Shown: piece by piece, positions 25,585-48,284 of the stretch | How the letters are laid out: each line of letters begins with the position of its first letter | How positions within the stretch are numbered: the stretch's first letter is position 1 | Sequence record: NC_028780.1 | Direction: 5' to 3' (one strand) | Length of the DNA: 64,000 nt | Source: Escherichia phage slur07 | The notes under the pieces: generated by a model | What the model was told of the DNA's origin: nothing | The model's input: the letters and a program-made list of their open reading frames with translations, nothing else | Databases searched by the model: none | Position numbers and translations under genes: made by a program

Positions 25585-26309
25585 ATGAAACTAATCTTTT
25601 TAAGCGGTGTAAAGCGTAGTGGAAAAGATACTACTGCTGATTTTATCATGAGCAATTATTTTGCAGTTAAATACCAACTTGCTGGTCCTATTAAGGATGC
25701 ATTGGCTTATGCATGGGGCGTATTTGCAGAAAACACTGACTATCCTTGCTTAACTCGTAAAGAGTTTGAAGGAATTGACTATGATCGTGAGACTAATTTA
25801 AATCTGACTAAATTAGAAGTAATCACGATTATGGAACAAGCATTTTGCTATCTTAATGGTAAAAGCCCGATTAAAGGTGTGTTTGTTTTTGATGACGAAG
25901 GACAAGAATCAGTTAATTCCGTAGCATTTAACAAGATTATTGACGTTATAAATAATATTGAAGATCAATGGTCAGTCCGTCGTCTGATGCAAGCCCTAGG
26001 TACGGATTTGATTGTTAATAACTTCGACCGCATGTACTGGGTAAAATTATTTGCTTTAGATTATCTTGATAAATTTAACTCAGGTTATGATTATTATATC
26101 GTTCCTGATACTCGTCAAGATCATGAAATGGATGCGGCTAGGGCGATGGGTGCTACAGTAATTCATGTAGTTCGTCCTGGTCAAAAATCCAATGATACAC
26201 ATATTACAGAAGCTGGATTGCCAATTCGTGATGGCGATTTAGTAATTACAAACGATGGTTCTCTTGAAGAACTTTTTTCTAAAATTAAAAATACACTAAA
26301 GGTACTATA

Positions 26310-26310: not shown

Positions 26311-27007
<697 letters not shown>

Positions 27008-27019
27008 TTTCACAAAGTT

Positions 27020-27049
27020 GTTTACATGGGGTTTTAGTAGTGATACTAT
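27020..27049 (+). promoter_or_regulatory. early (sigma70-type) promoter, -35 GTTTAC / 18 bp / -10 TACTAT
   Basis: GTTTAC 27020-27025 and TACTAT 27044-27049; drives the IPI-locus gene. Confidence 0.65.
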
Positions 27050-27060
27050 TACCCTATCAA
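27037..27060 (+). repeat. 24-nt direct repeat, copy 1 (GTAGTGATACTATTACCCTATCAA)
   Basis: Identical to 27337-27360, exactly 300 bp downstream; the two copies bracket the IPI-locus gene. Confidence 0.8.
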
Positions 27061-27085
27061 AACAAATGTGAAATTGGAGAACAAA

Positions 27086-27319
27086 ATGAAAACGTATCAA
27101 GAATTTATTGCTGAAACTGCTGATGTAAAAGTTGAGTTTATTTACACTGGCAAGAAAGATAAAATGGGTGAAATGCCTCATGGAGTTCTTCGTGATGCAT
27201 TAGATGATTTCGGTCAACTCGGTGGTGAAGAGTTTGGCGATTACTTTGTTATCTATGGCCCGGCAAAAGTCATTGAGAAATGGGCTGATAAATATAAATC
27301 AATTTTTCGTAAAAAATAA
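27086..27319 (+). CDS. internal protein with capsid targeting sequence (IPI-locus protein)
   Basis: ATG at 27086 with SD GGAGA; 77 aa starting MKTYQEFIAETAD, the T-even CTS consensus cleaved by the prohead protease; not the T4 IPI length. Confidence 0.75.
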   Translation: MKTYQEFIAETADVKVEFIYTGKKDKMGEMPHGVLRDALDDFGQLGGEEFGDYFVIYGPAKVIEKWADKYKSIFRKK

Positions 27320-27349
27320 GTTTACTTTTAGATAGGGTAGTGATACTAT
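27320..27349 (+). promoter_or_regulatory. early promoter, -35 GTTTAC / 18 bp / -10 TACTAT, -10 centred in a 9-bp-arm palindrome
   Basis: GTTTAC 27320-27325, TACTAT 27344-27349; palindrome GATAGGGTA(27331-27339)...TACCCTATC(27351-27359). Confidence 0.65.
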
Positions 27350-27360
27350 TACCCTATCAA
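27337..27360 (+). repeat. 24-nt direct repeat, copy 2
   Basis: Identical to 27037-27060. Confidence 0.8.
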
Positions 27361-27377
27361 CTACCGAGGAGAATAAA

Positions 27378-27563
27378 ATGAAACGTTGTGAATTAATTCG
27401 AAATGTTGCTATTGCAATTTCTGCTTCTGCATTTAGTTTTTCAATGTTTGTTGGATTTATATGCGGATTATTGACTACAGCAGAAAATGTATTTTCACTT
27501 GTAGTAGCATTTTTAATTGGTTTAATTGCTATCGTTATGGATAAAATTTCTAAAGGTGAATAG
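27378..27563 (+). CDS. small membrane protein (two predicted TM helices)
   Basis: 61 aa, SD GAGGAG 8 nt upstream; hydrophobic AIAISASAFSFSMFVGFICGLL... Confidence 0.55.
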   Translation: MKRCELIRNVAIAISASAFSFSMFVGFICGLLTTAENVFSLVVAFLIGLIAIVMDKISKGE

Positions 27564-29082: not shown

Positions 29083-29128
29083 ATTTATGACTCGTCGTGA
29101 GACGCTCAGTTCTTTATTAGGGACTGAT

Positions 29129-29737
29129 ATGCATTTTTATCTTTATAAAATAACAAATAAAATTAATAATAAAATTTATATTGGTGTGCATTCTACCGAA
29201 AATTTAGATGATGGATATATGGGTTCTGGTAAATTATTAAAAAGAGCCCAAGATAAATATTGTATAGAAAATTTTTCTAAAGAAATATTAGAGTATTTTG
29301 ACGATAAAGAATCTATGCTTGAAGCCGAGAAAAATATTGTCACAGAAGAGTTTTTAAATAGACCAGATGTGTATAATTTAAAACTTGGAGGTGAAGGTGG
29401 ATGGGATCATATAAATAATTATCCTATGACAGATCAGCAACGCGAATTAATTTCATTGGGTGTTAAAAAGGCACATTCTAACGGAAAATTAAAAGGATGG
29501 TCTTCAAATGGATTAATGAAGAATGGCTTTGCTGGTAAAACTCATTCTCAAGAAGCTAAACGTAAAATAGCAAAAGCAAACGAAGCAAAAGTTTCTGCGG
29601 ATGAAAGAAAAAGAAGAATAGAAATTTCTAAATTATATGATTTTTCTAAACGTGGCGAATTGTCTAAATATGCTAAGCATATTGGCGTAAGTCATACTCA
29701 AGCAAAAAGAATTCTAAATCAAATTAACAATATATAA
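29129..29737 (+). CDS. segB: GIY-YIG homing endonuclease, SegB-like
   Basis: 202 aa from ATG 29129 (MHFYLYKITNKINNKIYIGVHST...GYMGSGKLL); GIY-YIG motifs; sits inside the tRNA cluster as T4 segB does. Confidence 0.8.
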   Translation: MHFYLYKITNKINNKIYIGVHSTENLDDGYMGSGKLLKRAQDKYCIENFSKEILEYFDDKESMLEAEKNIVTEEFLNRPDVYNLKLGGEGGWDHINNYPMTDQQRELISLGVKKAHSNGKLKGWSSNGLMKNGFAGKTHSQEAKRKIAKANEAKVSADERKRRIEISKLYDFSKRGELSKYAKHIGVSHTQAKRILNQINNI

Positions 29738-30565: not shown

Positions 30566-30593
30566 AGCCCCGACCGAAAGGTTGGGGCTTTTT
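30566..30593 (+). terminator. rho-independent terminator at the end of the tRNA/stable-RNA cluster
   Basis: AGCCCCGACC-GAAA-GGTTGGGGCT + TTTT. Confidence 0.65.
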
Positions 30594-30595
30594 AG

Positions 30596-30603
30596 TATAA
30601 ATA
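30596..30603 (+). promoter_or_regulatory. T4-type late promoter for CTS internal-protein gene
   Basis: Exact TATAAATA 41 nt upstream of ATG 30644; late expression fits a capsid-packaged protein. Confidence 0.5.
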
Positions 30604-30643: not shown

Positions 30644-31117
30644 ATGAAATCATATGCTCAATTTTTAAATGAAGCGGTGTTAAATGAAGCATCTAGCACC
30701 GAAATTCAAGCTGTCGCAAAAGCAGCCATTGCAGCGGGTAAATATTCCTATAAAGATGCTTCTGACGAATCACGATTCCAATTTGCTCGCGACATGAAAG
30801 CAGAAGGATTTACGGGAAATGCAGTTAGTATGGCCTGGAAAAGTTTAGTTGCTACTGGCGCTGCTTTTGCAAAGGCTTCGGGTAAACCTGCTCCTAAAGC
30901 AGATCCTAAAGTCACACAAGAGAAAAATATCGTTAAAGGAATTATCTCCAGATATGAAGCTATCCTTAAAGAGCTTTTAGTAATCAAAACTGAAGGTCAA
31001 AAGTTAGCTCGTGCTTATAGTTTCAAAGATAATCCACATGCTCATGACCTAGAGTATGTTGAAGACATCCAAAAAATTATTAAAGACCGCATTTGGTCTG
31101 CTAAACAAATCAAATAA
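30644..31117 (+). CDS. internal protein with capsid targeting sequence (CTS)
   Basis: 157 aa, MKSYAQFLNEAVLNEA... (CTS-like MK.Y..F..E); SD AGGAAA; late promoter TATAAATA 30596-30603 upstream; flanked by near-identical terminators. Confidence 0.7.
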   Translation: MKSYAQFLNEAVLNEASSTEIQAVAKAAIAAGKYSYKDASDESRFQFARDMKAEGFTGNAVSMAWKSLVATGAAFAKASGKPAPKADPKVTQEKNIVKGIISRYEAILKELLVIKTEGQKLARAYSFKDNPHAHDLEYVEDIQKIIKDRIWSAKQIK

Positions 31118-31271: not shown

Positions 31272-31328
31272 TTTTTCACAAAACTGTTTACATCCCTGTT
31301 CTTCCATGGTACTATACAACTATCAACT
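31272..31328 (+). repeat. promoter-module repeat, copy A (21 + 23 nt identical blocks)
   Basis: TTTTTCACAAAACTGTTTACA (31272-31292) and ATGGTACTATACAACTATCAACT (31306-31328) are identical to 46802-46822 and 46836-46858; only the 13-nt spacer differs. Confidence 0.75.
31286..31315 (+). promoter_or_regulatory. early promoter, GTTTAC / 18 bp / TACTAT
   Basis: GTTTAC 31286-31291, TACTAT 31310-31315; flanking sequence near-identical to the promoter at 46816. Confidence 0.65.
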
Positions 31329-31623: not shown

Positions 31624-31653
31624 GTTTACACAGGCTCATGATTGAGATATTAT
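31624..31653 (+). promoter_or_regulatory. early promoter, GTTTAC / 18 bp / TATTAT, overlapped by a 9-bp-arm palindrome
   Basis: GTTTAC 31624-31629, TATTAT 31648-31653; palindrome CAGGCTCAT(31631-31639)...ATGAGCCTG(31652-31660). Confidence 0.6.
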
Positions 31654-34514: not shown

Positions 34515-35755
<1,241 letters not shown>

Positions 35756-35756
35756 T

Positions 35757-35786
35757 GTTTACTTCCTCCAAGGACTTTGATACTAT
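35757..35786 (+). promoter_or_regulatory. early promoter for denV, GTTTAC / 18 bp / TACTAT
   Basis: GTTTAC 35757-35762, TACTAT 35781-35786. Confidence 0.65.
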
Positions 35787-35813
35787 ACATTCATCAACTA
35801 CTTGGAGGAAATT

Positions 35814-36230
35814 ATGACTCGTATCAATTTAACACTTGTTTCTGAACTGACCGACCAACATCTTATGGCTGAGTATCGTGAATTGCCGCGTGTTTTTGGT
35901 ATAGTTCGTAAACATGCGGCAAATGGTAAGCGGGTTAAAGATTTTAAAATATCTTCCGAGTTTATTTTAGGCTCTGGTCATGTTACGTTCTTTTACGATA
36001 AGTTAGAATTTTTGCGAAAGCGTCAATCAGACATTATAACGGAATGCTTAAAACGTGGGTTTAGTATAAAAGATACTGAAGTTCCTGACATCAGCGATAT
36101 TCCAGCAGAATGGAAAAATGATTATAATCCATGCAAATCAGCTATTAAATTGAGTCAACAACGACTCGATGAAAAAATTTTAATGAAGCCACACTGGTAC
36201 AAGTATTACGGCAAAAATATTTACATTTAA
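35814..36230 (+). CDS. denV: endonuclease V (pyrimidine-dimer DNA glycosylase)
   Basis: 138 aa from ATG 35814 with SD GGAGGAA: [29 protein letters not shown]..., matches T4 endo V; early promoter 35757-35786. Confidence 0.93.
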
Positions 36231-36239
36231 AGGAAACAT

Positions 36240-36713
36240 ATGAAAACATATCAAGAATTTATTACTGAAGCAGCTATTAATTCTCAAATTATTGCTGAAT
36301 CTTTTACTGATCTTTTGAAATTTAAAAAAGGTCAAAAAATCACTGCTGTATTGGATGATGGTACAGAAGTTGAGATGGATGTACAGGGATATAATTATGC
36401 AGTAGATGGAAAACTGTATAATAAATCTCATGCTAAATTTGATTCATTTGACGACTTTGTTAATACAGTTGAAGATGAAAAAACTCGTAGATCCATTGCA
36501 ACTGGTGATGCTAAGGTTCTTATGGCACACGGCCATGAACGCATTCGCGCTAAGCAGAATAAAATGGGCGAAGATAATTTCGCATTAGTTGGTTATCAAT
36601 CTGGTAAACAAACTTATGGTTATCAGCGTACTGCTACCATGTATAACAAAAATGGTAAAATCGCTTTCGTGAATAGTAAAGGTTCTGTTCAGTACGTCAA
36701 ATCATTCAAATAA
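36240..36713 (+). CDS. internal protein with capsid targeting sequence (CTS)
   Basis: 157 aa MKTYQEFITEAAINSQIIAE...; SD AAAGGAAA. Confidence 0.7.
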   Translation: MKTYQEFITEAAINSQIIAESFTDLLKFKKGQKITAVLDDGTEVEMDVQGYNYAVDGKLYNKSHAKFDSFDDFVNTVEDEKTRRSIATGDAKVLMAHGHERIRAKQNKMGEDNFALVGYQSGKQTYGYQRTATMYNKNGKIAFVNSKGSVQYVKSFK

Positions 36714-48254: not shown

Positions 48255-48284
48255 GTTTACAAGACCGTTCCTCTGTGGTACTAT
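48255..48284 (+). promoter_or_regulatory. early promoter, GTTTAC / 18 bp / TACTAT
   Basis: GTTTAC 48255-48260, TACTAT 48279-48284. Confidence 0.65.

Follow-up and report, generated by a model that had tools for sequence, protein, structure and literature searches.

The window analysed here is the whole 64,000-nucleotide (64-kb) stretch of DNA, which comes from a Tequatrovirus. The 2.5 kb around ip6 match 855 phage records, the best of them being AndreasVesalius (98.2%) and KIT03 (96.3%, with an identical layout). Genes follow the order 2, 3, 1, 57A, 57B, ip, trna.4, trna.3, trna.2, an ORF, tRNA genes and segB, and the succession 57B-ip-trna.4 therefore identifies the slot as the classical internal protein (IP) locus IP1, with 57B as its conserved left flank and trna.4 as its conserved right flank. 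Because 57B is Acb1, the slot for injected proteins directly adjoins another anti-defence gene; the PHROGs label for the 57B family, 'RNA ligase', is misleading. The features of the locus are as follows.

26552-27007, plus strand: 57B, which is acb1 (anti-CBASS phosphodiesterase); PF23474 Acb1, E 2.6e-60; annotated as 57B in KIT03.
27008-27085, plus strand: promoter module 1, with -35 GTTTAC at 27020-27025, an 18-nt spacer and the -10 at 27044-27049; its further parts are an AT-rich upstream element (aatttcacaaagtt), the extended -10 TGaTACTAT, a 5'UTR and the SD GGAG at 27076-27079.
27018-27065, plus strand: three-tier hairpin of module 1, enclosing the entire promoter, with the -10 in the apical stem-loop.
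27037-27060, plus strand: first copy of the 24-mer repeat (exact search).
27086-27319, plus strand: ip6 (ipVI), 77 aa, the protein starting MKTYQEFIAETADV; phrog_8111, tblastn, BFVD.
27320-27377, plus strand: promoter module 2, with -35 GTTTAC at 27320-27325, an 18-nt spacer, -10 TACTAT at 27344-27349 and the SD GGAG at 27368-27371.
27331-27358, plus strand: 12-bp hairpin of module 2, GATAGGGTAGTG/TATTACCCTATC, loop ATAC.
27337-27360, plus strand: second copy of the 24-mer repeat (exact search).
27378-27563, plus strand: trna.4, a 61-aa predicted membrane protein; phrog_1692; annotated in KIT03, JLBYU31 and SA21RB.

The product of ip6 falls in phrog_8111, 'internal virion protein' (E 3.9e-51). 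It was found by tblastn in 249 phage records, is annotated as ip6 or ipVI in VR25, fFiEco06, JK1 and PST, and has as its top BFVD match the 'Ip6 putative internal head protein' of VR7. The initial annotation had supposed that the cargo may be uncharacterised, but it belongs to this named Ip6/IpVI family. A large protein search with Ip6 recovered only 11 close relatives. No Pfam family was found, PDB sequences gave no match below E 0.07, and the AlphaFold model (mean pLDDT 83), a small alpha/beta domain, had no match among PDB folds in Foldseek at E <= 0.001. A weak ferredoxin-like or ACT-like resemblance (E > 0.07) was set aside. Mature Ip6 has no detectable sequence or fold similarity to IPI*, and the T4-type IPI in SA21RB is a different protein of 95 aa. 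That the gene is not of T4 IPI length, which had been taken to fit cassette replacement, agrees with this comparison (77 versus 95 aa) and with the differing slot contents described below.

Residues 1–10 of Ip6, MKTYQEFIAE (encoded at 27086-27115), form a capsid-targeting leader (CTS), defined as an N-terminal leader that ends at a prohead-protease site (PMC9026906). With a predicted protease site of the form I/L-x-E in this leader, and with its position in the IP locus, Ip6 would qualify as a T-even IP. Leaders of the MKTYQEFIAE type also occur on at least 10 unrelated ORFs of the slot. At one locus (L024), a 69-aa slot ORF has MKTFKDFLNEA joined precisely to Met1 of an ORF from a CTS-less family, which elsewhere lies directly after 57B (58 aa, in L014, L015 and L018; 55% identity), and the 71-aa slot ORFs of L031 and L032 were grouped with this observation. 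The leader is modular. The mature Ip6 domain is itself distantly related to CTS-less slot proteins, so one effector domain may exist in both injected and non-injected forms.

No late promoter motif (TATAAATA) lies between 57B and ip6, the nearest one upstream on the plus strand being at 25947, inside gene 1, and a late promoter for ip6 was rejected on this ground. Ip6 destined for prohead assembly would thus need either early-made protein or read-through across the module 1 hairpin, and this is a mild argument against a strong terminator role of that hairpin. As to function, Ip1, Ip2 and Ip3 are injected inhibitors, each of a distinct GmrSD type IV enzyme, and the authors of that work expect the other Ips of both loci to act likewise (PMC12373910). 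By analogy, Ip6 may inhibit one variant of GmrSD-type type IV restriction enzyme, a suggestion that we hold tentatively and at somewhat less than even chance. Because Ip6 resembles neither IPI* nor solved structures, its target is a guess; as a separate possibility, it could inhibit a GmrSD subtype that has no assigned inhibitor.

The 24-mer GTAGTGATACTATTACCCTATCAA is present in exactly two copies in the 64-kb window, both on the plus strand. No third copy was found in the window with up to 3 mismatches allowed, and none of 100 shuffled sequences matched. Each copy is embedded in GTTTAC-N18-TACTAT, with GTTTAC at 27020 and 27320 and TACTAT at 27044 and 27344. The repeat pair that the initial annotation described as bracketing a 77-aa CTS-bearing gene, with a shared -35 GTTTAC, is thereby confirmed to the exact coordinates. 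Its spacing of 300 bp, start to start, is also correct but carries no meaning, and the idea of a meaningful distance was dropped; the value is the length of the ORF plus UTR, and it is 298 in another phage of the set (L036). Over their full length, the 41-nt modules 1 and 2 are 80% identical. We took as criteria for a T4-type early promoter a -35 GTTTAC, a spacer of about 17–18 nt, an extended -10 of the form TGnTA(c/t)(t/a)AT, a downstream CTATCAA and an AT-rich upstream element. Judged from sequence, both modules fit this description and align base for base with 11 other sites in the window, and a sigma-70 scan called TTTACA-17-TACTAT with TG in module 1. The -35 of module 2 directly abuts the ip6 stop codon, and each module ends in an SD and a start codon (GGAGAACAAAATG at 27076 and GGAGAATAAAATG at 27368).

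How much of the repeat is simply promoter consensus can be judged from an alignment of 13 early-promoter-like sites in the window over these 24 columns. The sites are on average identical at 14.2/24 positions, and 15 of the 24 positions of GTAGTGATACTATTACCCTATCAA are the consensus of the other 11 early promoters. Full 24/24 identity is unlikely to arise from column frequencies alone (~2e-6). The promoters at 31286, 46816 and 48255 form three unlinked pairs that are identical at 22/24 positions in the same columns, and those at 31286 and 48255, 17 kb apart, have an exact 24-mer in common (TGGTACTATACAACTATCAACTAC). The earlier statement that other promoters of the window do not share the 24-mer therefore holds for GTAGTGATACTATTACCCTATCAA, and the GTAGTGA...TACC variant is confined to the ip6 locus within the window, but a 24-nt identity is not unique to the ip6 flanks. 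We rejected the argument that the 24-mer is unique among promoters and hence special, since the TGGTACTATACAACTATCAACTAC pair is likewise exact; T4-type early promoters thus tend in general to share long exact strings. Given 15/24 consensus positions and equally long strings elsewhere, the identity alone is no proof of recent exchange. Promoter consensus, which had been named beforehand as one explanation that would undo the cassette reading, accounts for part of the identity, yet the cassette data from relatives still favour exchange.

Both modules are also folded elements. The RNA fold of 27016-27066 reaches -19.2 kcal/mol (z -4.25, with 0/200 shuffles as good), and the DNA fold of the module 1 hairpin -9.2 kcal/mol (z -2.9). 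In the module 2 hairpin, the -10 hexamer spans the loop's 3' portion and the first bases of the 3' arm, and 27316-27366 folds as RNA at -16.4 kcal/mol (z -3.85, 1/200 shuffles as good). In both modules, as in a PeSL, the published promoter/stem-loop element, a stem-loop is physically joined to the early promoter. No U-tract is present at the module hairpins and a terminator scan of the window made no call, so a canonical intrinsic terminator was rejected; the overlapping 'terminators' that the depositors of SA21RB placed at the modules were annotated by software only.

From 40 loci we gathered 43 unique modules, the majority of which fold at -10 to -20 kcal/mol; examples are a T4-type module (L004, -15.5 kcal/mol) and one from an empty slot (L010, -20.6 kcal/mol). 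Pairs were counted in 35 aligned modules, and no subsets were selected for the covariation count, to avoid circularity. In one register, 69.3% of cells were paired, compared with 64.8±1.0 in shuffled alignments (0/500 as high), and sliding the same register along the alignment gave 28–61%. Changes on both sides were seen in 8 of the 12 stem pairs. This register fits only some modules, and a single hairpin common to all was rejected; a second register suits the other module type. Because two registers exist, the covariation support is moderate. Among other early promoters of the window, those at 31286 and 46816 are without a hairpin. Those at 31624, 35757, 38862, 44057 and 48255 (plus strand) are hairpin-wrapped too, and in several the 3' arm holds the downstream SD, as in TTCCTCCAAG...CTTGGAGGAA at 35757 (-16.9 kcal/mol) and at 48255 (-19.4 kcal/mol). 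With the SD inside the 3' arm, read-through transcripts would hide the ribosome-binding site and promoter-proximal transcripts would not.

The initial annotation had asked which gene occupies the interval between the repeats in T-even relatives. Across the 40 loci, the answer is different CTS genes, with 0 to 5 genes per slot, and the same gene with the same flanks does not recur in all relatives. 57B and trna.4 are separated by as little as 80 nt, with one module and no gene (L009 and L010), and by as much as 1664 nt, with five genes (L020). The CTS proteins of the slot include Ip6 (77 aa), T4 IPI (95 aa) and others of 74, 85, 90, 92, 97–99, 102–103 and 110–121 aa, and CTS-less ORFs also occur. 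In Tequatrovirus, every slot gene has a module copy of its own in front of it.

The loss of a cassette between the two modules of the window predicts a specific junction. We joined positions 26900-27036 to 27337-27500 in silico, and this product is found as a single 301-nt match at 95.7–97% identity in at least 9 Tequatrovirus records. Records with the deletion-type junction are 11B_SA_NWU, PTE-Eco15, A6-6, slur02/04/11/13 and bov9_1/bov10K1, and the lone module of these phages consists of the left half of module 1 and the right half of module 2. Several Tequatrovirus genomes (L042, OR062527.1; L043, LN881729.1; L044, MT884006.2; around locus positions 491-586) have no IP gene between 57B and trna.4, and their lone promoter module equals the recombinant of the two modules of the window. 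Junctions of this type exist in natural genomes, and either loss or gain of a cassette could have produced them.

Breakpoints are also visible where cassettes differ in number or kind. The slot of AndreasVesalius has two cassettes and three modules, and module 1 of the window combines the spacer of its first module with the post -10 segment of its second, so that a crossover falls within GTGATACTATTACC. In L036 the spacer of the second module is carried entire, so the crossover point differs from that in the window. In AndreasVesalius, the final 57B codons and the upstream promoter element recur as a copy at the end of the 85-aa gene. Two spacer types (A and B) and two post -10 types ('ccctatc' and 'c(t/c)tcatc') are found in each of the four possible pairings, a distribution that puts crossovers inside the -10 core; hairpins of the mixed combinations are weaker (-12.3 and -7.0, versus -13.7 to -17.4 kcal/mol). 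Crossover sites lie in the -10 core (window and KIT03), upstream of the spacer (L036), upstream of the -35 (L035) or in the last 57B codons (AndreasVesalius). Exchange inside the modules at variable positions fits general homologous recombination and not a fixed site. Between close relatives, modules lie at the edges of insertions, deletions and replacements, and the proposal that cassettes are gained, lost and swapped at the repeats is supported by the slot series, the deletion junction and the breakpoints taken together.

We consider it probable, with good confidence, that the two 24-mers are the shared cores of tandem promoter/stem-loop modules that are specific to the T-even IP1 locus and serve in cassette exchange. 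The case for exchange rests wholly on comparative sequence. A module would be the T-even analogue of a PeSL and a self-contained expression unit (AT-rich element, -35, TGnTACTAT, UTR and SD), each driving early transcription of its downstream gene. The hairpin, with the -10 at its top, could form only in the DNA itself or in RNA that reads through from upstream, and might mark or stabilise the 3' end of the upstream unit. As each slot gene has its own module, direct repeats of 20–60 nt stand on either side of neighbouring genes. The highly active homologous-recombination machinery of T4 could act on these repeats to delete a cassette, to insert one, for example via an excised circle, or to swap one in a mixed infection. 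The window would represent the one-cassette state with ip6 as cargo. To judge from its leader, Ip6 would be packaged, have its leader removed by prohead-protease cleavage after ...IAE and be injected along with the DNA.

The identity of the modules might instead reflect functional constraint on two strong early promoters that belong to one local subtype and need the same -10 core and hairpin arm, while cassettes changed by crossovers in the flanking 57B and trna.4 with the repeats uninvolved. Such constraint would agree with the 15/24 consensus positions and with the 22/24 and exact matches among the unlinked promoters at 31286, 46816 and 48255, and structure could preserve the 24-mer, which contains the 3' arm of the hairpin. 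For a simple allelic swap, moreover, the conserved flanking genes suffice and the repeats are not needed. We nevertheless think this account unlikely: the number of modules follows the number of cassettes, with one module per added Tequatrovirus gene over copy numbers of 0 to 5; homology breakpoints are found within modules and not within the flanking genes; each of the four spacer/post -10 pairings exists; and the terminal copy of 57B codons in the 85-aa AndreasVesalius cassette reads as the footprint of an exchange within a module. A chance match or an assembly artefact has negligible probability and was ruled out, as the shuffles yielded no match and the two-module ip6 layout recurs in the independently sequenced genomes of KIT03, vB_Eco_CP, PhiZZ23, RB18 and others.

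The modules could also be more than passive patches of homology, if they were targets of a dedicated structure-specific recombination that recognises a folded site in the manner of integron attC. The hairpin is kept across genera while its sequence changes, and Arbiol et al. speculated on a specific DNA-binding protein for PeSL stems (PMC2839356). Against this stand crossover points that vary between lineages and a slot in which no gene for a site-specific recombinase and no fixed crossover point were found. In T4, repeats as short as 6–10 bp lead to deletion and amplification of the DNA between them (PMC9391042), and general T4 recombination would be enough; a dedicated system seems to us highly improbable. 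We also doubt, as something quite unlikely, that the hairpin enclosing the -10 is an active element rather than a by-product; it could, for example, act as a cruciform, or as a site where replication stalls, and so direct template switching or cleavage by endonuclease VII to the module core. If it were active, T-even phages would have a quasi-site-specific, integron-like cassette system for injected anti-restriction proteins.

Further features of this kind are found elsewhere in the window. A second IP locus is present at 35474-35755 (plus strand), adjoining the lysozyme gene e (34989-35477) and denV (35802-36230), and an ORF at 36240-36713 (plus strand) was listed together with it. The second locus encodes a 93-aa CTS protein. 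This protein and the 85-aa IP that AndreasVesalius carries in its 57B slot are paralogues with 51% identity, so that one IP family is represented at both IP loci; the early promoter/hairpin module at 35757 directly follows the gene for the 93-aa protein. At 30644-31117 (plus strand), immediately downstream of a strong, terminator-like hairpin (30566-30589) and of a late-promoter motif (TATAAATA) at 30596, a 157-aa ORF starts with a CTS-like leader (MKSYAQFLNEAVLNE) and may encode an additional internal protein, away from both classical loci. A 216-aa ORF at 29087-29737 (plus strand), within the tRNA cluster, may be a second source of local mobility; KIT03 annotates 'endonuclease / segB' from the corresponding position.

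The locus offers a working case of the exchange of injected anti-restriction proteins among T4-like phages, which contributes to setting host range, and it is of use for annotation and for the choice or engineering of therapeutic phages. Among known cassette systems, the slot resembles integron cassettes with their attC hairpins in its single ORFs of promoterless size, hairpin-forming repeats, variable-length arrays and natural empty site. It differs in having no integrase, variable crossovers and a promoter of its own for each cassette, and the mechanism is most likely general homologous recombination. In cargo, Ip6 is like T4 Ip1 (IPI*), Ip2 and Ip3 in its N-terminal CTS leader, small size, IP locus and early promoter, and differs from IPI* in its mature part, which has no detectable sequence or fold in common with it.

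The closest likeness is to the PeSLs, for which deletions and encapsidated mini-circles were described in RB49/phi1 (Arbiol 2010, PMC2839356) and which were extended to PST/T4 and stated for IP loci (Comeau 2014, PMC4122927). The PeSLs of RB49/phi1, PST/T4 and nt-1/KVP40 share with the modules of the window an AT-rich region, -35 and -10 boxes, a stem-loop, an SD and an ATG, as well as a hyperplastic setting in which single small ORFs are flanked and indels end. Those of RB49 have near-perfect sigma-70 boxes and G/C-rich stems upstream of the promoter, with termination and mini-circles shown experimentally, whereas the modules of the window, studied here at the level of sequence, have the -35 GTTTAC and AT-rich stems that wrap around the -10 and lack a U-tract. 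To go by its figure legend, the published PST element likewise has its stem upstream, in contrast to the wrapped -10 seen here. Arbiol et al. regarded the T-even IP elements as analogues of PeSLs, not homologues (PMC2839356).

PMC2839356 and PMC4122927 credit Repoila et al. 1994 (EMBO J 13:4181) with having seen such elements at T-even IP loci. In those descriptions the locus is the same (the IP1 slot by gene 57), as are the basis in a T4 early promoter, the AT-rich stem-loops of variable size, the replacement of IP genes and the proposed mechanism, and they contain no essential difference from the modules of the window. The match that the initial annotation drew with published promoter/stem-loop shuffling in T4-type phages is therefore apt, and extends to this very locus. 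Architecture and mechanism are already known from Repoila 1994, Arbiol 2010 and Comeau 2014; what is added here is a natural series at one site, from empty through one and two to up to five cassettes, together with crossovers inside the -10 core.
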